Shown: positions 5,451 through 27,386, counted from the first letter of the stretch. The stretch: DNA of 64,000 nt from an uncultured virus (IMG/VR IMGVR_UViG_3300031539_000003) (IMGVR_UViG_3300031539_000003), one strand, 5' to 3'. Made by a program: numbers and translations. The notes: generated by a model from the letters alone, not told the origin.

Positions 5451-7778
5451 TTAAGCTTTTTCTCGAATTTCTTCATAAATTTTAACGAGTTTATTACCAA
5501 AATCAGTCCATGAATTAGTATTGCAAAAATTATATTGATTTAAAACAATTTTTCTTTGCAAATTCTCATCATTCAATAAATTGATAACACCTTTCGATAT
5601 TACTGTTGCACTTGGAGTAACAATTTCACAAACATTCTGCAAATCAGAGAAAAAACTTGCATTTGATACCATTAATGGTCTTTGAACTCTCATGCAAAAT
5701 CTGCTGGCAATCGAAACTCCCCAATATTCGACATTATTAATACTATAATTATTATATGGTAAAATAATCACATCGCTAGCAGCCAACATCTGTAATACTC
5801 TATCTTCTGGTAATGTATTTTTAAACCTTTTTACATTATCAGATAAACCTAATCTTCTAATTGTATTATCCAATAATTCATCGTACATTTGTGTTGCTAC
5901 TCTATCTCTCTTAACAACAGAAATAATAAGGTACAATATATCTGGTATTTCACGCTTAATGACTGGCATTGCCTTAATAACTTCAATCCAATTCTTGTGA
6001 GGCTGTAGAAATCCAAAAGAAGCAATTATCTTCTTATTTGTCATCCTAATATTTTTCTTTGCTTGATCCTTATCCAATGAATATCGCCCATCGCAACCCA
6101 TTATTAATACCCTAACCTTATCATGAGCAACGCCACATTCAGAAATCATTTTACTCTTTATCATCTCACTATGCACAATAACCAAATCGCATTTTGCAAA
6201 ACCAGAATTATGCGCAACGCCCATAATGCCACAAGCATAATCATGTACTGTGATAATAACCTGGACATTCATCATTTTTAATATTTCTATCGTATCAACT
6301 AATTTCTTATGACTATAAAAAGAATAATGATGCTGTATATGTACTGTCCTAATACCCTGTCGCTTTACAGTGTCAGCAAGATTATATATATTTTTTATTA
6401 TTGTTATGTCCTGTTGTCCTCTTGTCCTCTCTATTAATTCCTTTGTATAATCAGCAACACCACAATTATCGCCCCATGATGGGATTAACATTGCAACAGT
6501 ATTTACTTTAGTATCCTTATAGACAACATTAATATTTAACATATTTTCCTGAGGTCTATCAACAACAACACTATCATCTAATATAAGTTCTTCAAAATTA
6601 TTAGTAACTAAACTAACCTGCTGTGGTATCCAATACTCATCTAATTGTTGCAATCTTTCGTACATTCTTTGCCCAGCAACAGTCCAATTGAATTCACTCG
6701 TTATTTTTTGACGAGCCACTGCACCTTTAGCTCTTGCAACCATAATATTTTCATAAGCTTCTCTCATTAACTTTCTTGCATGCAATACATCTATAACAGG
6801 AGAACGAGAATTCTTATATAATACACTTGCTTTATGAAGATCTCCATAATCCTCAAGCCCATTGGTTTTAACTAAATAACCATTATCACTATTAACAAAA
6901 TCAAGATAAGAAGAATTATCCGGCAATATACACGGCAACCCAGATGCCATAGCCTCTGCCATAGGTAACCCAAATCCTTCGCCCCTAGTCAATAAAACAA
7001 ATATATCTGCAGACGTATACAATCCTGGCATTTTATCATCACCTATTATATCACCTATAAATAAAATGTGAGGGTGTAAAACATTGGGCGATTCCCTACG
7101 ATATCTTATAATATCTTCTTTTATTATTCTTTTGGATTCAGTCGGTTTTTTAGAACCATTGTAAGCCTTTAATATTAAGGAAACATTATCATCGCTTGAA
7201 AACTCGGCTAAATAAGCAGGCAAAAGTAAATCAAACCCCTTCCTAGGAGTATACTCACTAATAGAAAGAAATCTAACCCTATCATCTTTTTCTATTAACG
7301 GTTCAATAGCAGGATGGTATTGATCGACATAAACTCCAGGCTGCATAACAACAACATTATTAATACCATTATCATTAAAGGTATTTAAATTATATGTACT
7401 TGGAGTCCACACCTCATCCATCTGTAAACATGCTTTCTTCCAGTCATATTTACCCACATTCGGAACATCGGAAAACTCAAACATCGTATAGCCTATTTTA
7501 TAGCCAGCATAACTCCTATCAAACCACGGAGCAATGCCCAGACTAAGTTTTGGAGGAGTAAATCCTCTTGGAATTACTGTTTTCTCTAATTCGTTGAGTC
7601 TCCTTAATACTCCTGCAGGCAGCGGGGCTTCATGTGGTTCCCATAACTTATTTGGTTCTAACTTTATTCTTACTCCTAGCCTATCTAATTCCAGTATAAA
7701 ACCACGTGCAAGTTTAGCATAACCTGAAGGCCCATAGACGGGGGCAAAAACGATTAAATACATGTCTCTAACTGCCAT
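5451..7778 (-). CDS. Two-domain GT-B (GT4-like) glycosyltransferase
   Basis: Domain 1: GPSGYAK, PRKGFDLL, TRGEGFGLPMAEAMASGLPCI. Domain 2: CGVADYT, FGFLQPHKN, LAASDVIILPY. Confidence 0.9.
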   Translation of the reverse strand: MAVRDMYLIVFAPVYGPSGYAKLARGFILELDRLGVRIKLEPNKLWEPHEAPLPAGVLRRLNELEKTVIPRGFTPPKLSLGIAPWFDRSYAGYKIGYTMFEFSDVPNVGKYDWKKACLQMDEVWTPSTYNLNTFNDNGINNVVVMQPGVYVDQYHPAIEPLIEKDDRVRFLSISEYTPRKGFDLLLPAYLAEFSSDDNVSLILKAYNGSKKPTESKRIIKEDIIRYRRESPNVLHPHILFIGDIIGDDKMPGLYTSADIFVLLTRGEGFGLPMAEAMASGLPCILPDNSSYLDFVNSDNGYLVKTNGLEDYGDLHKASVLYKNSRSPVIDVLHARKLMREAYENIMVARAKGAVARQKITSEFNWTVAGQRMYERLQQLDEYWIPQQVSLVTNNFEELILDDSVVVDRPQENMLNINVVYKDTKVNTVAMLIPSWGDNCGVADYTKELIERTRGQQDITIIKNIYNLADTVKRQGIRTVHIQHHYSFYSHKKLVDTIEILKMMNVQVIITVHDYACGIMGVAHNSGFAKCDLVIVHSEMIKSKMISECGVAHDKVRVLIMGCDGRYSLDKDQAKKNIRMTNKKIIASFGFLQPHKNWIEVIKAMPVIKREIPDILYLIISVVKRDRVATQMYDELLDNTIRRLGLSDNVKRFKNTLPEDRVLQMLAASDVIILPYNNYSINNVEYWGVSIASRFCMRVQRPLMVSNASFFSDLQNVCEIVTPSATVISKGVINLLNDENLQRKIVLNQYNFCNTNSWTDFGNKLVKIYEEIREKA

Positions 7779-7804
7779 TTAAAACAATCTCCTAGAAAAT
7801 GTTA

Positions 7805-8605
7805 TTAAACAGTCGATGATGTTGACGATTCAGAACTATCTGACGACAAAGAACTTACCGATAACTTACTCGATTCAGAACTATCTGACGATAAAGAACT
7901 TACTGACGATTTACTTGATTCAGAACTTAATGATAACTTACTCGATTCAGAACTTAATGAATCAGAACTATCTGACGATAAAGAACTTACTGACGATTTA
8001 CTTGATTCAGAACTTACCGAAACACTAGACAAGGAACTATTAGAAGAACCTGAACTCAATGAATCAGAGCTTGACGATAATGAGCTTTCTGAAGACTTGC
8101 TAACAGAAAGTGACGACTTAGAAGAATCAGAAAATTCTGCCTGTTCCTCTCCCATCATATTTATCTCAACATCAACATATCCAGGACCAACCTTTGAAAC
8201 ATAACCAATAAGATTATCTGTAACAGATGAGCCATCTTCACCCACCTCTCCAATAGCACAAACCTTACCAAAACCCCATATAGAAATCCCTACTCCAACA
8301 ACCAAATTTGTCGATATAGCATAAACCATTCTGGCTATCCCATGTCTCATAATAGTAATTTCATCCTCTTGCAAAGCCGAAGTTATAGCAACCCCTCTAA
8401 AATTATCAAGGGTACAATTCTGCTCTGCCCATCTAACAGTCCCATCATTCCCATTAGCCTCTGTGGCCTGCCCCTTCAATACATAATTATTGGCAGGCCC
8501 AACTGTAAATGGATAAGCAATGCTTTTACCACCTAATACATCCACAATCCCTTCAATGCTCACCCCAGCCGAAGGTAGTGCGCTTATCATTGGTCTTGCA
8601 GTCAT
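7805..8605 (-). CDS. Head decoration protein paralogue with Ser-rich C-terminal tail
   Basis: N-terminal ~150 aa closely resemble 56341..56814 (MTARP..S..P.AG..I.GIVDVLGGKSI; RHGIARMV; YVDVE); last ~107 aa are (SSx)n. Confidence 0.8.
   Translation of the reverse strand: MTARPMISALPSAGVSIEGIVDVLGGKSIAYPFTVGPANNYVLKGQATEANGNDGTVRWAEQNCTLDNFRGVAITSALQEDEITIMRHGIARMVYAISTNLVVGVGISIWGFGKVCAIGEVGEDGSSVTDNLIGYVSKVGPGYVDVEINMMGEEQAEFSDSSKSSLSVSKSSESSLSSSSDSLSSGSSNSSLSSVSVSSESSKSSVSSLSSDSSDSLSSESSKLSLSSESSKSSVSSLSSDSSESSKLSVSSLSSDSSESSTSSTV
7826..8130. repeat. Coding tandem/degenerate repeats encoding the Ser-rich tail
   Basis: Exact 55-bp direct repeat at 7875..7929 and 7962..8016, plus several GATTCAGAACT units. 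Confidence 0.85.
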
Positions 8606-8646
8606 TTTACATCTCCTTCTATTAATGTAATATTAAACATTCATTT

Positions 8647-11600
8647 TTATATAGTTGACGAATCAGAGCTTATAGACGAATCAGAGCTTATCGACGAATC
8701 AGAACTAGCCGATGAAGATGAAGCAACTATTGTAACCTGATTCCATTCTGCTATAACAATAAATGGTTCAGGTGTAGGCTCAACAAAAGTTATTGAATTA
8801 CCCAAAATAGTCCAATCCGTATTTTTTCTTAATCTACTCCCATTTTTAAATAATCTAATATTATTGGATATTGACTCAACATATTCCAGTGGCATTTCCC
8901 AATGAAAAGCATCAACAAAAGTACAATCACCCTCAAAATATTCTGATATAGTCGTTAAAATAGATTCTAATGTCTCAACTAATTGGCCCCAGTCAATATC
9001 AAATCCCAACCCTATTAAGGCAGCAAGTTCCTCTAACCTTTGCCTATGTGTCCTTACTTCACTTTCAACAGCCTCAAGCCTACCCTCAATATCAGAAAAT
9101 GGCAATTGCCATCTAAGCTCAAAAAATGAACCATTTATAGGAGCTTCCTCAAACTCTAACTCTGCTGTCGCCCTTGTCCATTTAACTTCCCCTGAACCAA
9201 GCGACCTTACCTGACTATAAACCTGAGTTGATTGATTATAATTTATCCAAATTGTCTGATCTGATCTTTCGGTAATTGAAACCTCATGCCCTCTATTTAA
9301 CTCGACTGGAGGTGTTACACTAATAATGCTATTGGTAGATAATTGATATTTCAAATGCGTATAATAAACATTAAAACTTCCACCTTCAATGACACTATAT
9401 ACTAACCAGACGTTACCATCAGCACTATGATGTAATTCCATTCTAGAGTCAATATTAAAATTATCTAATACAGCCGATAAGTCTGAAGGTATAAAATCTG
9501 CAGCGACTACTATGGCAGTATCAACATCCAATATAGCAGCCATAGGTCTATTACTATTATCATAAACAGAATTATCACAAACCCACGATATCCAAACATC
9601 TCCACCGTCAGATAATTCCTGAGAAAGAGATGGGTAATAACAATTATTAACACCATCACTTATCAAAATTTCACTTCCAGATGCTGCATACGGTGCTGTA
9701 CTATTAAAAACTCTTAAATAAATGTTTGATATCCCGCTCTCAACCCTTCTATAGACAAGCCATATCTTATCACCAGTACCACCAGTATTGTATATGTATT
9801 TCCCTTGTGGTGAATATATTTCATCTGACAAATCATAAAAAGGTACAGGATCAGCAAAACTTGTCTGACCATAAGACACATAACTATAATAAACATTGTG
9901 ACTATTTACAGGCAAAGAACTGGTAAATAAAAACATTAAATCTTCATCTGGTCCATTTGGAATTTTCACAACAGAAGGCCTAGAATCAGAATCAACAATA
10001 AATCCTGTATTTACAGGAGGTGACCACACTTCTTCTGATATCTTCTGAGTTGCCCACCATAAATTATAACTAGCCCCAACATCTTCTGTATCAACCCATA
10101 ATGTCCATACTTCATCGTCAGATTGAACTGCAGATACAACAAGCCCAAGATTATTACCACTAAAACTAACTCTCTGTGGAACTGTCCAAGGATTTATCCC
10201 TCCAGGAGTGAAATCATTAACTGAATATGGTTGCCCTGGTGCTGTATACGCTGAAATATCCCCATCCACAGTAATAGTAGTGGCTGTATTCGAAATTATT
10301 TCATAAACCTGAGGGGTACCATTAGCTGTATTAGGATTTATATGACCACCAACAAGAGACCCATCGGTAGGAAAGTCAGCAACAGTATCTCTAACAGTAA
10401 AATTATCCGGAAGAGAAGTCACCGTACCAAAACTAGGATTATATAATAATTCCAATATAATAGGATTGTTGGTACTATCATCAGTCAAATCTGCCCTTAC
10501 ACCAACAAGCCTTGAAGTCTCATCTTCTAACAATAAACTATCAACTTCAAAAACTGTATTTACACCATTTACATCCTGAGTAACCCTTTCCATAATCAAT
10601 CTGGTTGTTTTATCATAAACTCCCAGATTATCTTCTATCTTGGTAAGTAACGATTGAAGAGTATCGACATCAGATATTTGATGCTGATGAATAATTGTAG
10701 AATACTCAGTATCGTGATCATGCCCCTTATCAGACTTCCCTGTAGTCGGATGATCAAGTTCTTCTTGAGTATAATACCTGTTATCATGAGCAACAACAGT
10801 ACCTATTGGAGGATTAGATCCATTAAGATTTTTTGTATGCTCTTCAAACTCATTATTATTTATGTAATTAGGATGAGCATCAATATCATTCCTATGAGAT
10901 TCATGTTTGGCATTTTCAACATATAATGTATGAGCATCATGGTAAAAATCAACCGTTAAACGCTGTCCGGATGCCGGTGGAACAAGAAAAACAATTCTTC
11001 CCCATTCTTCTGTTACCTCTTCACCTTGTTTTATATACGTTCTATCTACAACATTCGTAACTGTATAAAGAGCACCATTAACTAGCGCTTCGTCTAGATA
11101 AACTGCTATCGACTCATCTTCTGCTATTGGTAAAACCCAAAAAGTATTAGCTGTTCCATTAGTTAACTCATCTTGCAAACCGTCAGGAACATACGCCTCA
11201 AAAAATTTAGTAGTATGAATCCCAATATCTTCAACAGCCTGATTGGCAGCACTGATAACACTCGGTAAATCTTCTATGATATATCGCATATCAGTAAGCT
11301 CTAACTCAGCCGTATGAGGCAAATACCATATTCTCTCCTGGGAAATCAAACTGACATCAGATAATACAATTAAAATATTTCTTGTATAAGGAACATAATA
11401 AACACCTGGGACAAGATCACTCGACATCCCATTATTATTTAATGCATCCCACTTTGACTGAGTAATAGCAGACGGAATCTTAATAATCGTTTCGCCACCA
11501 TATGTTAAATAGGTAACTTTTTCTACAGTCAATATATTAAGATTAGCCTCATATTTTGCCCAATTGACACCCTCATCATGTGTCCCATCCATCTTATCTA

Positions 11601-12222
11601 AGAAAACTTCAGATTGAGTTTTAAGAATTTCCGGTCTAACTAACTTTGCAATTTCATGAAACAGTATATTCCCATCAGCATCCATCTCTGTTGGAAGCGT
11701 ATCCACTAACCTTAATCTATACCCCGATTCTACTCTATCTGACGTATGTTTCCCATCTATAACAGCAAAGCCTGGCTCACCAAGAGCAACAGGTATAAAA
11801 TTACTATTTAATCTTTCTAATATAAGGTGTAATACCACAAGATCTGGATAGACATCATTATCGGGAACTTCAACATAATCATTTAATGGGATATCAACAG
11901 CCTGCCCACCTATATATGCTTTTCCCTTAGTTATCTTTAACTCATAATTACTGGTAGGAGATAATACTACTGCCTGCTGTAAAGATGTAACCAATCCAGG
12001 CTCAAATTCTTCTGTTTCAGTATTGAATTTAGTTTTATAAACACCATTAAGCTGCCCGCGTGTAGCAAACAGGAAATTTTCAAAACTGGTAATCATTATA
12101 TCCTGGAATGCTATCAGATCAGTCGGCGTTATACTCAAATCATATTTGAAAACTACTTTTTCAAATATTTTTCTAGATACCGGCACACCATTCTGTGTAT
12201 ATAGAGAGTAGACATCTGACAT
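8647..12222 (-). CDS. Large virion fibre/baseplate-associated protein (HxH fibre repeats, propeller-like region, coiled coil, Ser-rich C-terminus)
   Basis: AHDNRYYT, GHDHDTEY, HQHQISDVDTLQ fibre-like motifs; repeated W-I/L-V/S-Y/W strands; ends SSSSASSDSSISSDSSISSDSSTI. Confidence 0.65.
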   Translation of the reverse strand: MSDVYSLYTQNGVPVSRKIFEKVVFKYDLSITPTDLIAFQDIMITSFENFLFATRGQLNGVYKTKFNTETEEFEPGLVTSLQQAVVLSPTSNYELKITKGKAYIGGQAVDIPLNDYVEVPDNDVYPDLVVLHLILERLNSNFIPVALGEPGFAVIDGKHTSDRVESGYRLRLVDTLPTEMDADGNILFHEIAKLVRPEILKTQSEVFLDKMDGTHDEGVNWAKYEANLNILTVEKVTYLTYGGETIIKIPSAITQSKWDALNNNGMSSDLVPGVYYVPYTRNILIVLSDVSLISQERIWYLPHTAELELTDMRYIIEDLPSVISAANQAVEDIGIHTTKFFEAYVPDGLQDELTNGTANTFWVLPIAEDESIAVYLDEALVNGALYTVTNVVDRTYIKQGEEVTEEWGRIVFLVPPASGQRLTVDFYHDAHTLYVENAKHESHRNDIDAHPNYINNNEFEEHTKNLNGSNPPIGTVVAHDNRYYTQEELDHPTTGKSDKGHDHDTEYSTIIHQHQISDVDTLQSLLTKIEDNLGVYDKTTRLIMERVTQDVNGVNTVFEVDSLLLEDETSRLVGVRADLTDDSTNNPIILELLYNPSFGTVTSLPDNFTVRDTVADFPTDGSLVGGHINPNTANGTPQVYEIISNTATTITVDGDISAYTAPGQPYSVNDFTPGGINPWTVPQRVSFSGNNLGLVVSAVQSDDEVWTLWVDTEDVGASYNLWWATQKISEEVWSPPVNTGFIVDSDSRPSVVKIPNGPDEDLMFLFTSSLPVNSHNVYYSYVSYGQTSFADPVPFYDLSDEIYSPQGKYIYNTGGTGDKIWLVYRRVESGISNIYLRVFNSTAPYAASGSEILISDGVNNCYYPSLSQELSDGGDVWISWVCDNSVYDNSNRPMAAILDVDTAIVVAADFIPSDLSAVLDNFNIDSRMELHHSADGNVWLVYSVIEGGSFNVYYTHLKYQLSTNSIISVTPPVELNRGHEVSITERSDQTIWINYNQSTQVYSQVRSLGSGEVKWTRATAELEFEEAPINGSFFELRWQLPFSDIEGRLEAVESEVRTHRQRLEELAALIGLGFDIDWGQLVETLESILTTISEYFEGDCTFVDAFHWEMPLEYVESISNNIRLFKNGSRLRKNTDWTILGNSITFVEPTPEPFIVIAEWNQVTIVASSSSASSDSSISSDSSISSDSSTI

Positions 12223-12259: not shown

Positions 12260-15200
12260 CTAATATTGTCTATATAATGTTATCCTATAACCTTTAGTTT
12301 GTAAATTAGCATGATTATGATATATTTGTAAAGCTGAAGAACTACTAAAATAAGCATAAAAAGAGCCAAAAGTAAAAACAGGATAATTCATACTATACCA
12401 TATATTACTAAATGCCTCAACTTCATAATTAATAAGAACGCAATTGTCTGATGTAAAACCAGTAGGAAGAGTTACACCCGATGATGCGCCAGCACCAGTA
12501 GTCCCTGTAAGTACTGTTAAATGTCCTGAGACATATCCACCGTTACTTGCGGAAGCAGGGTTAAAGGTAATGGTTTTACCACCTATAGAAATTGTTCCAT
12601 CATTATTAATAGGACTATTAAATGGAAAACCATATCCAGCATTAATATTAACATCCCCACCATATCCCTCAACTGATTGCTTTCCATCACCACCCCTAAT
12701 ATTGATAGTACCACCTTCACCACCATCACTAAGCAATGCATCGCCACCATCTATCCTAACATCTCCACCATCTGCATAATCAGAGGTATTTGTACTACTG
12801 CTACCTCGTATATACATGTTATCAGCACTATTAGAGCTAGTGTCAGGATGCACAATATATGCATCATTATAACTCGTAAAATATATTGACTTTGCATCTT
12901 CTATATCAGCCCCATTAATATCTATTGCTTTACCATTAAGATAAACCTTACCATTACGATCATTTATTCCACCATATCCAGCATATATATATACACTACC
13001 ACCGTAACCTTCACTTCCAGGAGTCGTGTTATAATCATTCCCACCTTTTATCTCAACCCCACCACCAGAGCCACCATCAGCCGGACTATGACCAGCATAC
13101 ATCCCCATCCATCCACCCGAAACCCCAGAACTAGTACTAGTTGTAGAACCTGCTTCCAACGAAAAACCATCAGATGACCCACTAGATACATCGCCATGTT
13201 TTATTTCAGCATAATCAGATGAATCAAATTCTATAGTTTTAACACTACTTATTTTAGCATCAGCTACAGTAATGTCATTTATGCCAACATAACTACCATT
13301 AATTGAAACGAACCCTTCTCCACTACTACCATAACCAGAACCAACATAGACATTTCCACCAAAGCCAGTGATAGCATTTCCTCCAGTAACATATACATCT
13401 CCACCAGCACCAGAAGTTGCTGTCCCAGCCACTAGATTAACATCACCACCGCTTCTACCTCCACCCGTTGTATTACCACCATACACGCTAGTATCCTGCG
13501 CATGATAAGTAGTATGAACAGCATGACCTATCACACCTTCTGACGTATGAGCAAACTCTATTGTACTTGCCATATACAAATTAGCAAACCTATTATTAAT
13601 ACCACCTAAATCAGAAGTATTATCTGACCTACCTATAAAATTACCTTCGCTAAATATGGTACCATTAGCACCAATAAGACAGATAATATTACTAACACTA
13701 TCCTTAAAGGCAACCCCAGCATCAGTTATCTGCCTTATACTTAAGTCATACGTATCAGCTACAGATGGATTATAATAAGTGAATATGTCAGCACCCCTAT
13801 TTGGTGAAACAACATTACTCCCTTGACGAAAAGATAGTGAAGCAAAAGCAAGCGGGGAATTACTTTCATTATGAATTATTGAACTTGCCCCAACACTTGC
13901 ACTAGCAACATTAGACTTAACAGTCAATCCTGACGTAGCATTATACCCACCACCTGGCATAGTTATAGTTGTTTGCCCTGATTTTTTAACACTAAATCTT
14001 TCTGATATACTAACTAGACTATCTATAGCAGTATTTGCATCGGTATTACCAAAATATTGAAATTCCCCAGCAGCATTAATACCAAACATAGCAGCATCAT
14101 TATCGGCTACTAAACGTTTATAAGTACCACTATAGTAAATATTTCTGGTAAACCAAGTAGATGCATTAGCCCCAGAATCAAAATCTAAAATACCCAAAAC
14201 ATCTTTATACTGAAAATCAGCCTTCGGAGGATTTACTCCTATTCCTAATTTCCCCCCTATATGTGCATTATTCAATACATGCAAACTATTCGGGCCACCT
14301 AATGTATTTAATGCAGTTATTGCATTAGCATAACTTGGATTTATTCCTATCCTACCAAATAATCCACCTGCAGCTGTCCCACCGTTAAGATGTTGCACAA
14401 CATCATTGGTAGTATCATAGTCAATTTGCCCACCACCAGAACCTGTTGCCTCAAAATAAAATGCTGGTCCCTGAAATGAACCGGCTGTAATTTTTCCTGA
14501 TGCACCTATAGTAGTAACACCAGAAATAGCGCCAGCATTCGTTATCCCACCGCTACTATTATTCAACCCATTACCGGTAATTAACCCTGATGCAGAAATA
14601 GTAGTTACACCGGTAAGAGCACCACCCATAGCAATAGTAGACGCTCCAGAAATAGCGCCAGCATTCGTTATCCCACCGCTACTATTATTCAACCCATTAC
14701 CGGTAATTAACCCTGATGCAGAAATAGTAGTAGCTCCTGAAATAGCACCAGCATTAGTTATACCTCCACTACTATTATTTAAACCATTTCCGGTAATCAA
14801 CCCAGATGCAGAAATAGTAGTCACTCCCGTAAGAGCCCCACCCATAGCAATCGTAGATGCTCCTGAAATAGCACCAGCATTAGTTATTCCACCAGCATTA
14901 ACATTAAGAGAAGGAACCGATGTCGCACCACCGATAATAGCAGTACCAACAACACCTAAATTACCACCTATAGAAAGATCATTACCTAACGCATTAGGAT
15001 AAGTGTCATTTGCAGTTCGTGGAGCCCACGGAACTGTTGCCGACCCAAAAGTTAACATTGCCCCATCAACCCACAAATTGATAGTCTGCGTTGCTGCGCT
15101 AAAACCTTCTGGAGCAATAAAAACTCTTATACGTGTTGATCCAACTGACATTCTATGAGTAATTTTATATCTTTCAAAATTACCGGCTATACTAAATAAC

Positions 15201-17217: not shown

Positions 17218-20200
17218 TTATCCTACATCATTAAAGACACTCGGACACGAAGCCGACCCTATGATTGTTGTTTTAGTCGGATTCGTATAATGCGTAATTA
17301 CGATAACACCCAACTCCTCTTGCCCATAAACACTATTATTATTCTGCCAATCATACGGATTAAAAATTAATCTATACTGTGCAGTCTGATAATAAGGGAA
17401 TGGCAAAGATGTTTGTGGTGGAACATATGTCATTCTTTCTGTTAACTCTATAGTTCCATGAGGGCCAACAGTTACTGGGTAATCCGTTTGTTCTGTAGCA
17501 GTCCTCGGCAAAATATTAACCTTACTCTGAGAACTATCTGTATAAATAACATCTCCCCAAACATCAGATAAATTCAATGTCGCTATCACCTGACCATCTA
17601 TCGTAGCCTCCAAATAGCCCTGATCTGCCGGATATATATAACCGGTAATATTATATGCTGTACCACTTAAATTGGTCACACCACTATGATGAGCACCAAT
17701 CGTAATACTCGTACCAGGCAATAGAACTGCATCAGCAGGAATATAAGCATTACTTGATAAAAACCCTAAATTAGCCCAATCCTGTCTCATATCATTTGGC
17801 CCATTATCCACAGGATGTGCCCCATTTCCAGTATCTTCCCCACCTAATACCGGCGGTGCCGGAGGAGTCAAATAAGACAATAACGCTGCAACATCCGGAA
17901 TCTCAAATTCATTGTCTGTTAAATGAAGATTTCCGATAACACCCAAATCATCTACAGCAGGATCATCGCCAAGTGTATTGGAACTATTCTCGCCATTATG
18001 ATTATGCCCATCACCAATACCCCATACCAAGGAAAAACTATTAACTCTCGGTTGACTATCCCCACTATTATTATCTGGTATTACTTCAATCTTAACCCTT
18101 AATTGACTACCAATAGTAAGAGGAGAATCAAAAGTATGCAATGAATTTGGTGTAACTTGAGTTACAGGAACACTCCCGTCATTAGATAAATAATATTTTA
18201 CTTCATTTCCACCACCATTCATTTCATCTCTAACAAAAAATAAAACAGATTCAATATTTGACAGTTCAACTATCCCAACATTATCAATCCAAAATTCATT
18301 GCTCCCACTCGCCCCATCACCATCTAACTGCATTTTCATCTTTGCAGTACCACTTGGAGCAACAACAACACCAGTATACTCTGCATATCTCGAATTACTT
18401 GTATCAATATTTACTACTGAACTACCAATAGGAACATCGGCAATAGTAAACCATAACACCTTAAGTTGATACGCAACACTAGTACTTTCTGCCTTAATAA
18501 ATGCTGATATATTATAAGATTTCCCTACTTCAGCAGATACAAAATTAGTCATCGTATAACCGTTACCAAAACTAACCTTAACAGCATTATCACCAGCATA
18601 ACTTTTCGTACCATCTGTACTAAACACAGGAGAACCGGTTTTAGTCCAGTTATCAGGATCAAGAACACCACTCTCAAAAGTAGGATTCTCACTCCCTATT
18701 TTATTCACAACACCTATTGCATGCTGATCAACAAAAGATTTTGAAACCCATGTCCCGGTACCTCCAATTGGAGAAAAATTTCTCCAATCAGCAACAAGAT
18801 CAGTCGCCTGAGTAGGAACTTCATTTGCTCCTAAATAAACATCTCTATTATCCAGTTGTACATTGCTACTATTTGCATCATCCATATAAGCATAATCTAT
18901 GAATGATTCAACTGCCATTTGAGAAAGAGACAATCCAAGATCAGCAGAACTTACAAATAACTGTCTGTAATATTCAACAGTAGTTTCTAATACTTGTAAT
19001 TGCTGCCATGCACTGTATTCACTCTCACTAGGATTCCCACCAGTTGGAGAACCACCAGACCCACTACCACTATGCTTCCAGTCTATTCTAAATCTATAAT
19101 CACCGATATCATCATAACCTATAACATCAGTCCCAGTAGCATAATTAACATAAACTTCACCTATTTTCGTACTATTATTAGGGACAAGTGGCTTCAACCT
19201 GCTACCATCTTCAACCCCCTTAACTACACTTACAACCCCATTATCACCCAATACAACTATATCAATCCTATCATTAGTAGTAACAAGATCATCTATTGAT
19301 ATTTGAGTATAAGTAGCTGATAATTGAGCCTCAAATTTCTCATTATTATCCCACTGTAAATTTTCATAATTTACTATCCCTGCTCCATCATAATTATAAA
19401 CAAGAGCTGCATCATTTATTGTAACCTTTAAAATTCCACTATCGGCAAAGGCTGTAGCAACCCACCTATAATAAGTATTAGCGCCAAAATACACGATATA
19501 AATATCATCACTAACAAGAGCCCCAGATATCCTGAATGTTTTATCAGTAGTAGATTCGGATGTAACACTCATCATTATGATACTATCCCCTACTCTTACT
19601 CTTTTCCCATTCACATATCCATAGCCATCTGTTACCTTGATATAATTGCTATCTTCTGCCATTAAATGGAAACCACGAACGATACCATCGCCACTTAAAT
19701 CTTTAACCCTGTCAAAAAGTGCATCTTCAATAGTTTTAAAACTACTGTCAGGAAATGTTTCAGCATTATGTTCTATATCAGAAGAATCTAATCCGTGAGG
19801 GTTATCAGCGTCCGGTATGCCAGTACCAACTTCCAATATATGGTCGGCAATAGAAACGTCTGTTTCCCCGTGCGTTCCAGTTTTGGGGAGAATGGTATAT
19901 GGTGATTCATCAGCATTTACATCAATATTCTTTGAAGATAAAGCATGTGCATTATTGTCATCGGCAGCACCCGTTCCAACCGTTGTAATATGATCTTCTG
20001 TCGTTAATTGAGAAGTCGTTCCTGGGGGATTAAGAATATCAACATCACGACCTTCAAGCCGCGGAGATATAATACCCTTATGTCTATGGGTATGCAATTC
20101 ATCGTACTGCTGAACTAATCGTTTATCAACTGAATTGGTACCATCAGGGGCAATAGGCAATGACCCATCAAAATATCTATTCCCCAGTATCTCCTGAATA

Positions 20201-21681
20201 GCCATATCAATAGAAACACCAGAAGAAATATCAGCCATTGCAAAATTTGCAGGCAAATTAGCCAGCGTATATTCATAACCATAATGAATAACTAACGGAA
20301 ATTGGCTTTGCTCTGTAACCTGCAACATATCAACATGATCAACCCAGAAATAATTACTTCCATTAGTCCCATCTCCATCCAATTCCAATTTTAAATAAAC
20401 ACCACCGGCAGGAGCAGTAACAATTGCTGTATACTTAGCATAATTATCATTAGTAACTGTAACATCTACAGTAGAACTGCTAACAAAAGAAAATCCACTA
20501 TTATACCAATTTGCCTTAAATTGGAACGTCAATGCCGAAGGACTATCAGCCCTAACGTATGCTCCAAGTCGATAAGATACACCAACAGACACCGGAACAA
20601 AATTTGCATTGGCATAAGAATTACCATCACTTACCTTCACACACTTATTACCGGTATAACTCTCAGACCCATCAGTACTATATAATGGAGACCCTACTTT
20701 ATCCCAATCTGTCGGATCAGTAGTCCCATTTTCAAAATCAAAATTCTCTGACAATAATAAACTGCTTCCACCAACGATAGGGACATAGACATTTTCAGCG
20801 ACATCTCCGGATAATGTAACGGTAGCCTCAGGTAATGTCTCCCCATCAATATCTTTAGTTACTATTGATACAACCGATATAAGATCACCATTTGTATCCC
20901 ATATTTTTGTACCATCAGCATTAGTTAATTCAGATGGTGTTACATTTAAATCTGCCCCTATTCTATCTCTTTCATCGGCAGTATTTGTCCCAGGTGTAAT
21001 CAACAATGTACTGGCAGATGCCATATTACCAGGAGCATCATATTGTTGCTCTGCTTTCTCATAAACCCGCTTATTAACTATCTCAGCCAATCTCATAAGA
21101 AGATGAGGTCTTGTATCCCTAATGGTGCAATCGTTAATATCAGTAGCCGTATCAGGACGTAAAACCCTTGCTAATTCAACGTAAAGTTCAGGATTAGTCG
21201 GTAACTCGACAGCATATATAGTTCCACCAACAGTGATTGCAGCACCCTCTTGGGCAACAACTATCTCATAAGATTCTTCTGTCCTATAAGTTGTCGGTTC
21301 TCCAACTCCATACTCCCACCCCTTATCACCCTCTCCTTGAGGAAGATAAACAGGTTCAACTGGTCTAGCTATGATATAAAGAGTCAAATCGCCAGAGTAA
21401 GTCGTCGGGTCTACAATAGTTAATGTATCATCCCCACCTTTACTTGTTACAATTTTACCGTTCGTATATGATCGACCAGTATTAACTGTAACATCCCAAC
21501 CAGTATCAGCAGCAACATCAAGACCATATATTACGCAATTACCAATAGAATCATAAACGAAATCCTCAAACCTTCTATTCTGGACATCCTGGAGTTCATT
21601 TAATTCAGTCTCAAGTAATATTTTATCTTGATAAAACCTAACCTTCTTAAAATTCTTGTCTTGTTCATTGACGTTTGGCAT
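17218..21681 (-). CDS. Large tail fibre/baseplate-attached protein (DUF4815-like N-terminus, two CBM-like domains)
   Basis: FKKVRFYQDKILLETELNELQD start; duplicated domain (SENFDFENGTTDPTDW...FWVDHV and SENPTFESGVLDPDNW...FWIDNV); DH...NPHG fibre repeats. Confidence 0.7.
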   Translation of the reverse strand: MPNVNEQDKNFKKVRFYQDKILLETELNELQDVQNRRFEDFVYDSIGNCVIYGLDVAADTGWDVTVNTGRSYTNGKIVTSKGGDDTLTIVDPTTYSGDLTLYIIARPVEPVYLPQGEGDKGWEYGVGEPTTYRTEESYEIVVAQEGAAITVGGTIYAVELPTNPELYVELARVLRPDTATDINDCTIRDTRPHLLMRLAEIVNKRVYEKAEQQYDAPGNMASASTLLITPGTNTADERDRIGADLNVTPSELTNADGTKIWDTNGDLISVVSIVTKDIDGETLPEATVTLSGDVAENVYVPIVGGSSLLLSENFDFENGTTDPTDWDKVGSPLYSTDGSESYTGNKCVKVSDGNSYANANFVPVSVGVSYRLGAYVRADSPSALTFQFKANWYNSGFSFVSSSTVDVTVTNDNYAKYTAIVTAPAGGVYLKLELDGDGTNGSNYFWVDHVDMLQVTEQSQFPLVIHYGYEYTLANLPANFAMADISSGVSIDMAIQEILGNRYFDGSLPIAPDGTNSVDKRLVQQYDELHTHRHKGIISPRLEGRDVDILNPPGTTSQLTTEDHITTVGTGAADDNNAHALSSKNIDVNADESPYTILPKTGTHGETDVSIADHILEVGTGIPDADNPHGLDSSDIEHNAETFPDSSFKTIEDALFDRVKDLSGDGIVRGFHLMAEDSNYIKVTDGYGYVNGKRVRVGDSIIMMSVTSESTTDKTFRISGALVSDDIYIVYFGANTYYRWVATAFADSGILKVTINDAALVYNYDGAGIVNYENLQWDNNEKFEAQLSATYTQISIDDLVTTNDRIDIVVLGDNGVVSVVKGVEDGSRLKPLVPNNSTKIGEVYVNYATGTDVIGYDDIGDYRFRIDWKHSGSGSGGSPTGGNPSESEYSAWQQLQVLETTVEYYRQLFVSSADLGLSLSQMAVESFIDYAYMDDANSSNVQLDNRDVYLGANEVPTQATDLVADWRNFSPIGGTGTWVSKSFVDQHAIGVVNKIGSENPTFESGVLDPDNWTKTGSPVFSTDGTKSYAGDNAVKVSFGNGYTMTNFVSAEVGKSYNISAFIKAESTSVAYQLKVLWFTIADVPIGSSVVNIDTSNSRYAEYTGVVVAPSGTAKMKMQLDGDGASGSNEFWIDNVGIVELSNIESVLFFVRDEMNGGGNEVKYYLSNDGSVPVTQVTPNSLHTFDSPLTIGSQLRVKIEVIPDNNSGDSQPRVNSFSLVWGIGDGHNHNGENSSNTLGDDPAVDDLGVIGNLHLTDNEFEIPDVAALLSYLTPPAPPVLGGEDTGNGAHPVDNGPNDMRQDWANLGFLSSNAYIPADAVLLPGTSITIGAHHSGVTNLSGTAYNITGYIYPADQGYLEATIDGQVIATLNLSDVWGDVIYTDSSQSKVNILPRTATEQTDYPVTVGPHGTIELTERMTYVPPQTSLPFPYYQTAQYRLIFNPYDWQNNNSVYGQEELGVIVITHYTNPTKTTIIGSASCPSVFNDVG

Positions 21682-21697: not shown

Positions 21698-22312
21698 TTA
21701 CGCAGGTTTATATAATTCTCTTTTATCGGAAATCATTCTAACGAACCAATTTGAATCCTGCAATACCTCTACATCCATTCCGAAAACTTTATCAATAGCC
21801 TTTATCATACCGTGAAATCTCGCATGATAATCGTGACCACTCACAAAACCACCATCTTTTACTTTATCCATCCACGCTATAATATCTGCTAATCCATTTT
21901 CTTCATCATGAATAGCATCTATATAAACTAAATCTAATGAAAAATCATCTATCGAATTTACAGCATTGAGAGAGGTATCCCTAATAATAGATATTTCACT
22001 ATTATTTCTTGCCATTCCAGCAATGCGATTATAAATCTTCTCCCAATATTCATTCGTAAGTTCTTCTGGTCTTGGGGTTCTATCATAATTTTCAGGATAA
22101 GGTTTCCAGGGATCAACGCAATAATATTTTTCAATAATACCCTTGCACCCTTTAATAACTCTCCCTGTCAAACCGCCGGTAAATACACCTATCTCGGCAA
22201 CATGCTTTAACTCATATTCCTTAATCAAATATTCAAGCATATGCATATTGCCGACATCAACAAATGCTTTTTTAGCACCACAACACCAGTTTGGTAAACT
22301 TCTTTTTCCCAT
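21698..22312 (-). CDS. Class I SAM-dependent methyltransferase (Methyltransf_24-like)
   Basis: AEIGVFTG, YCVDPW, DLVYIDAIH, GGFVSGHDY motifs. Confidence 0.85.
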   Translation of the reverse strand: MGKRSLPNWCCGAKKAFVDVGNMHMLEYLIKEYELKHVAEIGVFTGGLTGRVIKGCKGIIEKYYCVDPWKPYPENYDRTPRPEELTNEYWEKIYNRIAGMARNNSEISIIRDTSLNAVNSIDDFSLDLVYIDAIHDEENGLADIIAWMDKVKDGGFVSGHDYHARFHGMIKAIDKVFGMDVEVLQDSNWFVRMISDKRELYKPA

Positions 22313-23163: not shown

Positions 23164-23175
23164 ATTACACTCCTT

Positions 23176-25056
23176 TTACAAGCAGACAACTTCTCTCTCG
23201 TATTGATGAATAGCATCTCTCGTAAAGTATTCTGTTATTATAGCCTTCACTCCATAGAATAATGTCCATCTTCTATTTCTAATTCTTGGCATCCTTACTG
23301 GCTGTACAGTAGTAAGCCATTGCATTTTTTGTAATTCAAGCGTAGGATTACTCCCTCCATTCCCATAAGGATTAGCCGGTACTACCGTAGTCTGACCAAT
23401 AACACTACTAGCCATAGCGACCACTAAATCACTACCGGCATCTATATTGTCAAATATTTCTTCTATGCCACTGATAGGAATGTCCCAATATTCAATGAAA
23501 AATTCTGCCAGCCTAAAAATTGGGGCTTTATATATAGTACCACTCAAATTTACCCTAAACTGAAAAAAAGCATCAACAGATTCAACAATAAATTCTCCAG
23601 TATTGGTTACATATTCAGTTCCCCAATCATCCCCATCTCCTAAACCATTGAGATATGCTTCGGAAGGCCCAGTCCTTATTTGTACTGATATATCTCCGGT
23701 ATTATAAATCCACTTCACCATTCCGAATTTTGTCATACCATCACCATCGATGGGAGGTGAAATATAATATCCATCTGTCTCATATTCATCTAATACAGCA
23801 TCATAATCTAATTCTATATCAGCATCTTCTATTAATTTTCCTTCGTTAATATTACTCCATTTACCGGTCATTAGATAATCAGTTAAAATATCATCCCCAA
23901 AATAAACCATATCGTCACCATTAAATTCTTTGGGAACAACCTGTAAAGTAGCCTTTAAATCTGTAGTGCCATCATCTATCCTTAATCTAATATCATGTGA
24001 ATCAGCCGGTTCAACTCTAACCACTTCTCTCACATTGTTGTCTGCGTGATTAAATAATACGATTTCTTCTCTTTGCCCTAAACGTAACGGTATCTGAAAA
24101 TCCTTTGGCAAAGTAAATGATTCACCGTCCAATAATCGGTGTACTCTCCTAGATGTCATTACTCCGTATGAAACATCATCTTCAAACCTTTTCCCAGGAG
24201 CATTATTCTCAGTTCCATCATGATCTGTAAACCCTATTTTCGCTGCCCCTTCATCCGTACCTACAAGTAAATCATAATCTTGCTCCTTGACATTACCTTT
24301 AGTTCTAATATCAATTATGTCGTGTCTTTGTAATATGGGGATACCCCTGCACCAGTCATCCCTGACAACTTCGCCATCTAAATTACCTAATATTTCTCCT
24401 TTAATTTTACCTGTCAAAGACGCTTTATCTTCCAACTTCATTCTAAAATTATCTTTAAAATTTCCATGAAAGATAAGGTACAACAATACTCCTGCTGCTC
24501 TCGTTTTATATATTTTATCAAAAAGTTCAGCCCTACTTATGATAACTTCATCACCAGTCTGAACCATCATTAAATGGACTTCTATTTTCCCCTCTTTCGT
24601 TTCTTCTCCCAAGAATTTTGCTTCTTCAATAAAATCTTCGCCACCCTTTAATGCTTCTCTATAAACTTCAACCACTTTAGTATCATCATAATCATCATTA
24701 TCAACGTCTATTCCATAATAACCTCTAATTGCGTTTTTTATTCCCTGTAATGTAGAATCATTAAAAAATGTATCGTTAATAATAAGTCTTTTTCTATATG
24801 CCTCATCAATTTCACCGGCTAATCTTGGTCTATTCATCCCTTCACCGATTATATCAAGGTCATTTCCTTTTGCTGTCATAATAAAACGTGCACGAAGATT
24901 ACTGTCTACATCTTTCTTTATTTTATATAAAGAATTAGCCTCTGTCTTAAGAAGTACCCTATCAACACTATCTTCCTTGTACGGGCCGTCCCACTCAAGA
25001 AACATTTTCAGCATGTTTTCAAAAATTTGTTTTATCTCAGAATTTCTATCAGGCAT
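23176..25056 (-). CDS. Baseplate wedge protein (P2 gpI / XkdU-like N-terminus) with long C-terminal extension
   Basis: FIMTAKGNDLDIIGEGMNRPRLAGEIDEAYRKRL...TLQGIKNAI...RAAGV; directly after baseplate J. Confidence 0.7.
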   Translation of the reverse strand: MPDRNSEIKQIFENMLKMFLEWDGPYKEDSVDRVLLKTEANSLYKIKKDVDSNLRARFIMTAKGNDLDIIGEGMNRPRLAGEIDEAYRKRLIINDTFFNDSTLQGIKNAIRGYYGIDVDNDDYDDTKVVEVYREALKGGEDFIEEAKFLGEETKEGKIEVHLMMVQTGDEVIISRAELFDKIYKTRAAGVLLYLIFHGNFKDNFRMKLEDKASLTGKIKGEILGNLDGEVVRDDWCRGIPILQRHDIIDIRTKGNVKEQDYDLLVGTDEGAAKIGFTDHDGTENNAPGKRFEDDVSYGVMTSRRVHRLLDGESFTLPKDFQIPLRLGQREEIVLFNHADNNVREVVRVEPADSHDIRLRIDDGTTDLKATLQVVPKEFNGDDMVYFGDDILTDYLMTGKWSNINEGKLIEDADIELDYDAVLDEYETDGYYISPPIDGDGMTKFGMVKWIYNTGDISVQIRTGPSEAYLNGLGDGDDWGTEYVTNTGEFIVESVDAFFQFRVNLSGTIYKAPIFRLAEFFIEYWDIPISGIEEIFDNIDAGSDLVVAMASSVIGQTTVVPANPYGNGGSNPTLELQKMQWLTTVQPVRMPRIRNRRWTLFYGVKAIITEYFTRDAIHQYEREVVCL

Positions 25057-25067
25057 AATTACCTATC

Positions 25068-27386
25068 TTATACAAATTCAATATTACCGGCTCTCAAAAA
25101 TCCTCCTGCTGGAGGAATTATATCAGTCGATGGGCTTAAAACTTCTGTATAAAGTAATCCTTCTTCATCGGGATTAGCCTCTGCTATTATTCTTTCCCAA
25201 TATGCTACTTCGTCCTGCTCTAACTGATTTATATAAGCCGTTAAATTATCAATAATCAATTCCTTAATTGCATTCTCATCAGCACCACTCTCTAAATTTA
25301 TACCTACAGAGATAGAAACATCCACAAATTCTACCTGTGGCTCCTCTATAATAACTTCAATACCAGCGGCCTTAACTTCATTAATCGCATCTTCAACAGC
25401 CTGCCTTAAATCATTAGACATAGGTAACGCATGAGGTACCGGTAAAACAGTAATACTACCAGGCCTAACCTGCCAAACAGTATCCATGTATTCGCCTAAT
25501 TCCCCCTCATTTGAACCAATATCATCAGGAACTTTCAAAGCATTTTGTGCCTCTATCTCATAAATTCTTCTAGTGTCAGCCGTACCTGTCTTCTCTCCGA
25601 ATATTTCTGCACTTATCAGATTACTTCCATTACTCTTAAATTTATCCGCAACTTGAACCGGGTTATAAAGTGCGCCATCGTACACGTACCTCACAGTAAC
25701 AATACCAGTATCCTTAAAAACTGTTATTTTCTGCCCAGACTGAAGGACAAATGAAGATGAAGATTCACTTGATTCAGAAGAGTCGCTAGACATAGAAGAT
25801 AGCGAACTATCAGAATTAGATGAATCTGAGCTATCCGAAACAGCACTCGAAACAGAAGAAGAACTATGAATATCTGATGACTGCGATGAATTGCTGGATA
25901 AAGAAGAATTTGAACTATCGGATGATTCACTGGAAAGTGAAGATTCAGAACTCCTTGAAAGAGGGCTCGACTCTGACGAAATACTAGATATTGATGAATC
26001 AGAACTCTGTGACGTAGATGAAGTGCTAGACGATGATACTTCCAATAAACCTAACTCATACGGGGTACCATCTATATCGGTCTGCCCAGGTGTCAGTGCA
26101 ATTACTGGCTGATACGTTGGAATAACAAAATTAATTTCATCCCCTAACCCATCTAATAATAAGAATACCGGAAGTTCTTCTTCATACACAACATAAGTAT
26201 TAATATTACAAATTGATGACTGAGCGTTTAATAAATCCCTTAACACTCCAACATTCGGGACATTATCATAAATCTCTAATGTTCTAATATCATCGCCATA
26301 AGCAAATGTATATTTTAGTCCACTCGTAGATCCTGGAACAACATCAAAATAAATATCTTCAAGTTCCATTCCTTCGGGCTGAATTGTTAAAAATTTACCA
26401 ATAATCCTTGCCCCATCAGTAAGTTCGTAACTCTTTCTAGTGGTATTAATGTTACGTATTAATTCATCAAAATTGTCTATATTATTAAAATCTTCAGTAA
26501 GCTCAACATCATGGCTATCCCTATTCCATACCTTTAATCTTTTTGTCCCCGCCTGAGAACCATCGGTAATGTATAATGAAACTCTATCTGTTGCTATGGT
26601 AGCATTTAATGTACGAAGATAACAACACTTAACTGAAACACCATCTTCAAGATAATATTCTGCTGCAATTATTATTTGAGTTGGGTCAGTTATTGATACC
26701 GTTCTAATGCCCTGAACTCCCATAATAGCATTAGTAATAGCAGCCAATGTACCTTTTCCAAGAGACTCGAGGGCAACAATAATTCTTGCTCTATAATCTT
26801 CATCTGTTTCCTGTTTCGTCCCACCAGTAGTAGATGTAGTTACAACCCTATGGACACCAGATGGCGGATTAGGCATTCTATTTAGAGCACCAGCAGCCAA
26901 ATTACCGGATTCCCCTGGAATTGTACATCTAATACTTATTTCAGTACTCAATTGATTGGGAACAATTGTACCAGATTCAGTAGTAACAAAAGTAATAACT
27001 TCTTCATCAGGTGAATCTGAACTTGTTGTTACTTCTAGCCCTTGTGGGATCCTAAGTTCAACTGGCGATGGTAATTCTCTATAAAAAGTGGCAACACCTT
27101 CAGCATAATTAGGCTGTAATCTAAAAACACCCCTCTCTTGTCCATGCAAATCAAGATGCTTTCCAGTTGCATATAATATAAAACTTTGTTTCTTAAACTG
27201 ATATAACTTATAGTATAAATCAACCTTCTGCCTACCACTAGTATACATGAAAGTCCACATTTTACTACCAACATCAACATCAGTTACATCTCCACCTTTA
27301 ACAGTATTAACGTAATTCATCAGTTGATCTGCAACCACTTCACTAACAGGAGGGACTATCGTATTAACGTCTATTAATGATGCCAT
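25068..27386 (-). CDS. Baseplate J-like wedge protein with ~400-aa insertion containing a Ser-rich tract
   Basis: FILYATGKHLDLHG, PGESGN, GGTKQETDEDYRARI, GKGTLAAI, VKAAGIEV. Confidence 0.9.
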   Translation of the reverse strand: MASLIDVNTIVPPVSEVVADQLMNYVNTVKGGDVTDVDVGSKMWTFMYTSGRQKVDLYYKLYQFKKQSFILYATGKHLDLHGQERGVFRLQPNYAEGVATFYRELPSPVELRIPQGLEVTTSSDSPDEEVITFVTTESGTIVPNQLSTEISIRCTIPGESGNLAAGALNRMPNPPSGVHRVVTTSTTGGTKQETDEDYRARIIVALESLGKGTLAAITNAIMGVQGIRTVSITDPTQIIIAAEYYLEDGVSVKCCYLRTLNATIATDRVSLYITDGSQAGTKRLKVWNRDSHDVELTEDFNNIDNFDELIRNINTTRKSYELTDGARIIGKFLTIQPEGMELEDIYFDVVPGSTSGLKYTFAYGDDIRTLEIYDNVPNVGVLRDLLNAQSSICNINTYVVYEEELPVFLLLDGLGDEINFVIPTYQPVIALTPGQTDIDGTPYELGLLEVSSSSTSSTSQSSDSSISSISSESSPLSRSSESSLSSESSDSSNSSLSSNSSQSSDIHSSSSVSSAVSDSSDSSNSDSSLSSMSSDSSESSESSSSFVLQSGQKITVFKDTGIVTVRYVYDGALYNPVQVADKFKSNGSNLISAEIFGEKTGTADTRRIYEIEAQNALKVPDDIGSNEGELGEYMDTVWQVRPGSITVLPVPHALPMSNDLRQAVEDAINEVKAAGIEVIIEEPQVEFVDVSISVGINLESGADENAIKELIIDNLTAYINQLEQDEVAYWERIIAEANPDEEGLLYTEVLSPSTDIIPPAGGFLRAGNIEFV

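Follow-up and report, generated by a model that had tools for sequence, protein, structure and literature searches.

The stretch of DNA considered here (64 kb, hereafter the window) derives from the uncultured virus IMGVR_UViG_3300031539_000003 and is the late, particle-building operon of a myovirus, with all long open reading frames (ORFs) on the minus strand. Three proteins of its virion module, i.e., a paralogue of the capsid decoration protein, a fibre-like protein, and the baseplate wedge protein J, carry serine tracts built on the triplet Ser-Ser-x (SSx), and the genes of the first two stand directly upstream of a gene encoding a fused double glycosyltransferase (GT) of family GT4. These acidic SSx tails and loops on particle proteins, a duplicated decoration protein included, are a real, unusual, and lineage-specific set, and they raise the possibility that the enzyme O-glycosylates the tracts. 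The scans for GTs, tracts, and protein families cover only part of a genome of at least 136 kb, since a contig of up to 136,346 bp is assigned to the window's proteins in the protein database. Thirty-eight window proteins were run against Pfam and PHROGs, and selected ones were additionally subjected to NCBIfam and PDB searches and to AlphaFold2 (AF2) modelling with Foldseek. The features that carry the argument are the following.

5451..7778, minus strand: fused double GT4 glycosyltransferase, 775 residues; N half at residues ~1-378, C half at ~427-775
7805..8605, minus strand: decoration paralogue, 266 residues; decoration domain at residues 1-152
7808-8143, minus strand: Ser tract in the 266-residue ORF, 68 Ser in 112 residues (61%)
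7808..8149, minus strand: C-terminal (Ser-Ser-x)n tail of the decoration paralogue, 114 residues, net acidic
8647..12222, minus strand: fibre-like virion-module protein, 1191 residues; its orthologues lie beside the GT
8650-8742, minus strand: Ser tract in the fibre-like protein, 16 Ser in 31 residues (52%)
8650..8736, minus strand: C-terminal Ser tail of the fibre-like protein, 29 residues beyond the end of the orthologues
25068..27386, minus strand: baseplate J (wedge) protein, 772 residues, Baseplate_J family
25728-26054, minus strand: Ser tract in baseplate J, 63 Ser in 109 residues (58%)
25749..26036, minus strand: ~96-residue (Ser-Ser-x)n stretch, inserted into baseplate J at a variable loop
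56341..56814, minus strand: canonical capsid decoration protein, 157 residues, without a Ser tail; adjoins the major capsid gene

The tracts were located by a six-frame scan for segments with at least 10 serines per 20 residues. On the coding strand, such segments are confined to three ORFs, all on the minus strand, against a background of 7.3% Ser in 21 other window genes; the three (Ser-Ser-X)n tracts on structural proteins described in the original prediction are thereby confirmed in frame, at 52-61% Ser. A plus-strand match at 57592-57861 was rejected: it reads antisense to an acidic (ADEG)n repeat in a 1014-residue gene and is no coding tract. Serine codons within the tracts are mixed (TCT, TCA, TCG, and AGT) and the only DNA likeness between tracts is a single 25-nt match, which argues that the tracts are kept at the protein level and are not one slipping repeat. 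Within individual tracts, the paralogue tail contains recent internal DNA duplications of 45 and 87 nt, and the fibre tail contains an 18-nt repeat in 2.6 copies. The J tract includes seven Asp and six Glu versus one each of Lys, Arg, and His, the paralogue tail includes seven Glu, six Asp, and six Lys, and hydrophobic (Leu, Val, Ile) or basic residues occupy about a third of the x positions. When the J tract is aligned with that of the orthologue P0126, serine is paired with serine in 60 columns and with another residue in 2, whereas the remaining positions comprise 8 identical and 26 different pairs; this 8/34 stands against 80-82% identity across the whole protein, in an alignment whose low complexity favours S/S pairs and whose first ~75 columns are ungapped. 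Selection probably acts on the serines of the J tract, with the x positions left to drift. Each of the three tracts either terminates the chain or occupies a variable loop of its virion-module protein. A literature search by titles and abstract openings, with most subscription journals outside its range, turned up nothing on SSx tracts in virion proteins of phages.

A fourth Ser-tract protein of the same virus lies ~1.2-2.0 kb beyond the window's first base (L001:18985-19773), on a metagenome contig that encodes a GT 100% identical to the window GT and extends 2 kb beyond the window start. An N-terminal SSx tract of ~145 residues is followed there by a ~115-residue domain without a family match. 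The gene adjoins that of a putative endolysin of the Peptidase_M15/VanY type (L001:18000-18833), an enzyme which indicates a bacterial host.

The relationship of the 266-residue protein to head decoration, which had been predicted at the outset, is borne out by the alignment of its residues 1-152 with the 157-residue decoration protein (47% identity, E-value 6e-43). Its Ser tail starts exactly at the end point of canonical decoration proteins, and the canonical protein is, judged from sequence comparison, the source of the paralogue. The canonical protein matches Phage_cement_2 weakly (21.6 bits, cut-off 24) and has only 13 relatives in a representative-library search, and the paralogue has no direct match to that family. 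P0124, an orthologue of the paralogue at 68% identity, possesses a Ser tail too, of ~60 residues. The AF2 model of the paralogue, with a predicted local distance difference test (pLDDT) score of 34.8 from just 4 sequences, is uninformative, and exposure of the tail is thus inferred rather than modelled. The 1191-residue fibre-like protein has no match in Pfam, PHROG, or PDB. Its orthologues of 1227 and 1249 residues sit directly upstream of the GT in the sister-clade loci L002 and L003, and orthologues at 57-58% identity end 29 residues sooner, at ...EWNQL, identifying the Ser tail as an add-on. By contrast with these two tails, the tract of the J protein, which is firmly assigned (Baseplate_J, 106.3 bits, cut-off 21.1; phrog_6, E-value 1.5e-44) and whose orthologue profile matches the solved baseplate components 9euf_C and 9g8s_C, takes the place of a loop that has 5-8 residues in relatives, and returns to the same domain. 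The fibre gene, the Ser-tailed paralogue, the GT, and the next gene are consecutive and co-oriented, separated by gaps of 41, 26, and 21 nt, and no terminator-like site was found in these gaps; the two-domain GT4-like enzyme was therefore placed correctly, directly after two tract genes, in the original prediction. Compared with L002, L003, and L015, the paralogue is an insertion, placed precisely between the fibre and GT genes.

The GT satisfies CAZy GT4 and GT-B fold membership. It matches PF00534 (Glycos_transf_1) at 90.3 bits (cut-off 26.4) and PF13692 at 70 bits; the C half matches Glyco_transf_4 in Pfam, NCBIfam GT4 models match both halves, and the C half, although divergent, is GT4-like by profile, with EpsE, MshA, and TreT models aligning over residues 466-683. 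The AF2 model (pLDDT 72.6) comprises two GT-B folds connected by a linker of ~45 residues, in which residues 380-426 score below 50, and Foldseek relates it to the retaining GT4s MshA, BshA, PimB′, and HepE (E-values 1e-11 to 1e-12) and to a chlorovirus GT. The EX7E motif in the C-terminal Rossmann domain is the hallmark of GT4. The N half retains it intact as E267-x7-E275, and 11 orthologues conserve E267, E275, R179, and K180 without exception; in the C half the corresponding segment reads E684-x7-S692, so that EX7E is lacking there, and S692 and R693 are invariant in the orthologues. BLASTP detects no mutual similarity between the two halves, and Pfam reveals no membrane-domain family in the enzyme. 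The match to 4pqg (Gtf1) has an E-value of 0.0047 over 62 residues, and 4pqg is not among the Foldseek matches listed; GT4-conflict (PF20706) scores 23 bits, below its cut-off of 26. Neither fold nor sequence searches gave a clue to acceptor specificity, and none of the 120 GT-family matches listed, the window's own included, contains a Ser tract itself. A role in DNA modification was also considered and set aside: the 'thymidylate synthase' PHROG match belongs to the intein-bearing 61841-63934 protein and lacks Pfam or PDB support, and the window thus gives no hint of a hydroxymethyl-pyrimidine pathway.

Ten full-length orthologues of the GT were found, at 51-81% identity. The window's own clade (GT identity ~81%) has tracts, and the sister clade has GT identities of 51-61%. 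Within the former, the J orthologue P0126 (82% identity) carries a tract of ~100 residues, and P0124 lies on a contig of 10,603 bp, a length shared by the contig of a GT from the P0005 cluster; among relatives, the J tract occurs only in P0126 and the fragment P0137. The tracts are, on this distribution of sequences, a recent addition within the window's own clade.

Outside the orthologue group, the N half is most closely related to single-domain GT4s (42-44% identity), of which only one, found in L005 and again as L016, has readable surroundings. In L005:1-7648, continued on G001:C89, the gene next to this GT4 (44% identical to the N half) encodes an M16 peptidase, and the one after it, two genes from the GT4, a beta-propeller-like protein of more than 1641 residues in which five long SSx tracts connect the domains. 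The GC content of L005 (23%) is that of sister-clade contigs (23-25%), and L005/L016 share with L015 both a GC content of 23-24% and a metagenome-assembled genome (MAG) bin; furthermore, the pairs L005/L016 and L002/L015 recur in two data sets at 99.9% and 99.8% identity. The sister clade may, by these signs, carry SSx tracts on another protein beside a second GT4. The MAG holding L015 and L016 contains no capsid, sheath, or close J orthologue (only matches of 30-33% identity or none), so that the L005 cassette is not proven to belong with the sister-clade virus; this MAG is labelled Methanothrix. A further SSx tract occurs in P0140 (548 residues, retrieved from the representative library with the canonical decoration protein), in which three beta-sandwich repeats are connected by an SSx linker at residues 340-397 to a C-terminal decoration domain (43% identity), and which looks like a capsid-displayed, adhesin-like module.

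The reading best favoured by these data, quite possible if short of probable, is that the tracts are exposed serine bristles O-glycosylated by the double GT4. The tracts, the paralogy, the GT4 fold, the gene order, and the distribution over the clades are established; exposure at the surface, the pairing of enzyme and substrate, the roles of the two halves, and the benefit are proposals. Acidic, disordered (Ser-Ser-x)n tracts would have been added to outer particle proteins in the window virus and its closest relatives, and the 114-residue tail on the duplicated decoration protein would give a 'hairy' head. The tract serines would be glycosylated in the cytoplasm, before or during assembly, by the soluble double GT4 encoded immediately downstream, with a nucleotide-sugar of the host; the N half with its intact EX7E would perform catalysis, and the C half, in which the second Glu is absent, would either bind the acceptor or attach one more sugar. 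Tails with a glycan would then be shielded from proteases, and the particle surface would be altered; an excerpt of one report describes Ser/Thr-rich disordered regions as being guarded from proteolysis by glycosylation (PMC11092751). The link between enzyme and substrate is favoured by the adjacency of the fibre, paralogue, and GT genes. It also appears to be favoured by the GT4 of the same subfamily near an SSx-tract protein in the second gene context, L005, and by the conserved serines, the placement of the tracts at ends or in a loop, and the suitable type of enzyme. The fuller account, in which this lineage recently evolved a 'serine-bristle' coat on the duplicated decoration protein, J, the fibre, and at least one more protein, glycosylated by an older GT4 whose halves would act as a covalently joined GtfA and GtfB, one catalytic and the other binding the acceptor, seems rather unlikely.

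A number of observations weigh against glycosylation of the tracts by this enzyme. A loop of 5-8 residues replaces the tract in 10 of the 13 J matches (59-70% identity), and all three fibre orthologues, from L002, L003, and L015, lack the Ser tail while the GT is kept (L015 is 99.8% identical to L002, so that the three represent two distinct viruses). There is no decoration paralogue between fibre and GT in the same three loci, the sister clade retains the position of the GT directly after the fibre gene, and no S/T-rich tract was found in the five sister-clade loci L002, L003, L004, L006, and L015. Furthermore, the GT P0006 and the tract-less J P0127 are each located on a 38,133-bp contig, probably the same one. 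The co-occurrence of tracts and GT in relatives had been set beforehand as a test, and for three proteins the outcome was a GT without tracts; the claim that the acceptor tracts are 'dedicated' does not survive this result. Since tract-less relatives keep the GT, the enzyme is older than the tracts and not dedicated to them; it must consequently have another substrate too, and with the tracts the virus would have put an existing enzyme to a new use. The properties of the enzyme point in the same direction. A DUF1975 acceptor-binding insertion is a feature of protein serine O-glycosyltransferases of the GtfA/SdgB type. This insertion is absent from the Pfam matches of the window GT, the GtfA model TIGR02918 reaches 16.6 bits (cut-off 574.6) over residues 244-306 only, and the fold matches are GT4s acting on small molecules and lipids. 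The window GT is a generic GT4 and not GtfA/SdgB-like, and the comparison with such enzymes drawn in the original prediction finds no hallmark in it. No sugar-nucleotide gene was detected in the window by Pfam.

That the sister clade keeps the GT without tracts also favours another explanation, itself a serious possibility, in which the tracts stay unmodified: they would be flexible, acidic, disordered spacers of the polyserine type, or hydrophilic bristles, that tether or space domains or stop particles from sticking, and the GT would act elsewhere, on other virion sites, on an envelope glycan of the host, or on a different acceptor. In P0140 and the giant L005 protein, SSx tracts simply link domains, so that a spacer role could suffice, and domain-separating polyserine linkers are established in secreted carbohydrases (PMC2386152, in excerpt). 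The drifting x positions and the varying tract length (114 residues versus ~60 in P0124) are likewise in keeping with spacers, as is a survey of IMG/VR with the codon pattern for SS[DE], TCNTCNGAN repeated three times. At least 119 stretches were retrieved and 80 loci examined; most stretches were short or antisense, and 13 loci had an ORF of at least 180 residues with a tract of at least 30. A local GT4 hidden Markov model found no GT4 near the tracts in these 13 credible unrelated viral loci and one in the remaining 67, and Pfam identified a GT of any family near the tracts in 2 of 12 (L051 and L103; the giant-virus MAG L083 left out). The set is small, heterogeneous, and underpowered, and for this GT family it speaks neither for the link nor against it. 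Spacers, however, account poorly for the arrangement in the window, where two of the three tracts are free C-terminal tails that link nothing and the third loops back to the same domain; they also leave unexplained the place of the Ser-tailed paralogue directly before the GT and the co-occurrence in L005. In addition, a bare Ser tail of 100 residues on an environmental particle would be prone to proteases, as we infer from the excerpt of PMC11092751.

The cassette in L005, where a single-domain GT4 adjoins the SSx-rich protein, also permits glycosylation of the tracts by another enzyme, either a second GT4 of this type elsewhere in the genome or a host enzyme, with the double GT4 engaged in a different task. 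L005/L016 match the sister-clade virus in GC content, MAG bin, and recurrence, so that the group may carry both enzymes, and the visible portion is below half of the genome of the window virus. However, neither the 64 kb of the window nor the further 2 kb covered by L001 encodes such a GT4, and the association of L005 with a virus is unproven, its MAG having no capsid, sheath, or close J orthologue of the window virus; this explanation is improbable. Even less probable is that the acidic SSx tracts bear phosphate, or bind divalent cations, in the manner of DSS-repeat proteins, and carry no sugar. The period-3 Ser pairs and the many Asp or Glu residues at x would suit such a function, whereas about a third of the x positions are hydrophobic or basic and no protein kinase family occurs among the 38 window proteins in Pfam and PHROGs. 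We know of no precedent for phosphorylated or cation-binding tracts of this kind in phage virions, no search aimed at it having been made. Among these explanations, glycosylation by the double GT4 is slightly preferred to spacers, its main rival, with the enzyme serving at least one further substrate.

The remaining features of the myovirus virion module, recognised by Pfam and PHROGs, and the neighbours of the GT are listed below.

4572..5429, minus strand: conserved 285-residue protein directly downstream of the GT, by position and length
17218-21681, minus strand: 1487-residue protein with CBM_4_9
21698..22312, minus strand: S-adenosylmethionine (SAM)-dependent methyltransferase, 204 residues; Methyltransf_24, 50 bits (Pfam)
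23176-25056, minus strand: further baseplate protein
27402-27860, minus strand: sheath initiator or gp25-like protein
27961-31569, minus strand: beta-helix protein
43772-48544, minus strand: tape measure
50353-51789, minus strand: tail sheath
55251-56276, minus strand: major capsid protein

The SAM methyltransferase noted in the original prediction is confirmed in its fold (Methyltransf_24, 21698-22312), and the methylated glycan proposed from it is not, the enzyme showing no demonstrable tie to a glycan. It belongs to no NCBIfam family, its best PDB match has an E-value of 0.62, among phages its closest relatives are proteins of cyanophages that bear the label hypothetical or DNA methyltransferase, and its gene is 14 kb from the GT. 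The bacterial GT4 homologues P0089 and P0094 are fused to a Methyltransf_24 domain, and the window enzyme shows no significant similarity to that of P0089 (E-value 0.069). With a generic Methyltransf_24 match alone, the enzyme is not identified as a sugar O-methyltransferase or as linked to the GT, and its membership in the tract/GT system is unsupported.

Downstream of the GT, the 285-residue protein has no family by Pfam, PHROGs, NCBIfam, or Atlas, and an ORF of 286 residues occupies the same place in L002, L004, and L015, as judged by position and length and not by alignment. A subtilase-like protein of 239 residues (3777-4496, minus strand), which matches only the N-terminal part of Peptidase_S8 and mycosin models, is encoded two genes past the GT, as also in L002 and L004. 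Further downstream lies the gene of a 464-residue actin-fold protein (1933-3327, minus strand) with a Volactin match of 237 bits in Pfam; the downstream position of this gene is kept in L002 and L004, with an equal-sized ORF in L015, and an actin homologue of an archaeal-type family is unusual in a phage. Upstream of the GT on the sister-clade contig L006 (3-1421) lies a TnpB/Cas12f-like gene (HTH_OrfB_IS605 and Cas12f1-like_TNB). Elsewhere in the window, a second fibre-like gene for a 1274-residue protein (ORF 12260-16084, minus strand) contains tandem repeats of 90, 126, and 216 nt at 14496-14893 (85-94% matches), which are repeated modules of the protein. Between the portal region and the decoration gene, a 1014-residue protein (56877-59921, minus strand) with Pro/Lys-rich segments is probably scaffold-like, and its (ADEG)n is encoded by a perfect 12-nt repeat in 4.7 copies at 57706-57761. 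The 697-residue protein at the head of the structural module (61841-63934, minus strand) has an intein of the LAGLIDADG type (Pfam LAGLIDADG_3; NCBIfam intein-bearing models). No transfer RNA gene was found in the window. IMG/VR searches with the capsid protein, the GT, a GT alignment, and a fibre alignment returned no close relatives and merely 5 remote GT matches (25-28% identity), and the capsid protein has no match among isolated phages. A separate and strong candidate glycosylation cassette was observed in the unrelated IMG/VR phage contig L103 (8477-15323), in which the gene of an 887-residue tail protein with a 454-residue Ser tract directly follows the tape-measure gene and precedes GT25 plus sulfotransferase, GT2, GT2, and radical SAM genes.

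Should the phage enzyme glycosylate the tracts, self-made glycan coats, borne on dedicated disordered tags, would exist on phage particles beyond the actinobacteriophages; such a serine-bristle coat would be the first phage glycan coat outside that group on purpose-made acceptor tracts, and the birth of its acceptors could be dated on the tree. Glycosylated tracts would bear on particle stability, adsorption, and the recognition or clearance of particles. The GT and the 266-residue protein provide a small and directly testable enzyme-substrate pair, and the contrast between the clades, an old enzyme and new acceptor tracts, is a natural experiment on the origin of a coat. Even if unmodified, the tracts are still an unusual device, in which a duplicated decoration protein merely adds a 114-residue acidic Ser tail to the head.

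Comparable features have been described in several systems, and the closest are virion glycosylation in mycobacteriophages and glycosylation of serine-rich repeat (SRR) and Ser-Asp (SD)-repeat proteins; the window GT belongs to the enzyme family of neither. Polyserine linkers, which separate the domains of secreted carbohydrases (PMC2386152, in excerpt) and occur in Saccharophagus, Cellvibrio, and Teredinibacter, are long, Ser-dominated, of low complexity, and flexible, as are the window tracts, and the tracts of P0140 and L005 link domains likewise. By contrast, the window tracts are tails or a loop with regular SSx triplets and acidic or hydrophobic x residues, on particles assembled in the cytoplasm. 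The nearest GT4 homologues in isolated phages (23-30% identity to the N half) are encoded by genes 20-21 of Streptomyces phage Blueeyedbeauty and genes 89-90 of Flavobacterium phage immuto; both are pairs of adjacent genes, analogous to the window fusion, although they are separate and lie outside the fibre/baseplate module, and the immuto pair is part of a large sugar-biosynthesis cluster.

In mycobacteriophages, the glycans sit at the C-termini of capsid and tail-tube subunits (PMC12619734, in excerpt, citing Freeman et al., 2023). Virion O-glycosylation in Che8, Corndog, and Myrna shares with the window, as far as the excerpt describes it, phage-encoded soluble GTs, terminal extensions of virion proteins, and a shielding role, which is predicted here. 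Its targets are the major capsid and tail-tube proteins, whereas the window tracts, known from the genes alone, are on the decoration paralogue, J, and the fibre-like protein. The window's major capsid gene (55251-56276) encodes no Ser-rich segment and no tail, and thus no acceptor of the mycobacteriophage type. None of the 137 phage records that match the window GT is from a Mycobacterium phage, and the window virus differs from mycobacteriophages in being a myovirus of a low-GC host.

In Gram-positive cocci, SD-repeats are glycosylated by SdgA/SdgB. SRR adhesins are O-glycosylated inside the cell (PMC7948813 and PMC6973325, both in excerpt). The accessory SecA2/SecY2/Asp families were not found among the 38 proteins of the window, which spans 64 kb out of at least 136 kb of genome. 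These systems also differ from the window in that their repeats have a period of two (SxSx or SD) against the period-3 SSx, and in that the window GT lacks DUF1975 and a GtfA match and would act on virion proteins. Nevertheless, they resemble it in the use of cytoplasmic GT-B enzymes on long, Ser-rich, disordered repeats, and GtfA and GtfB form a GT-B pair with a non-catalytic GtfB, an arrangement similar to that of the window GT, in which an N half with EX7E is fused to a C half with E..S.

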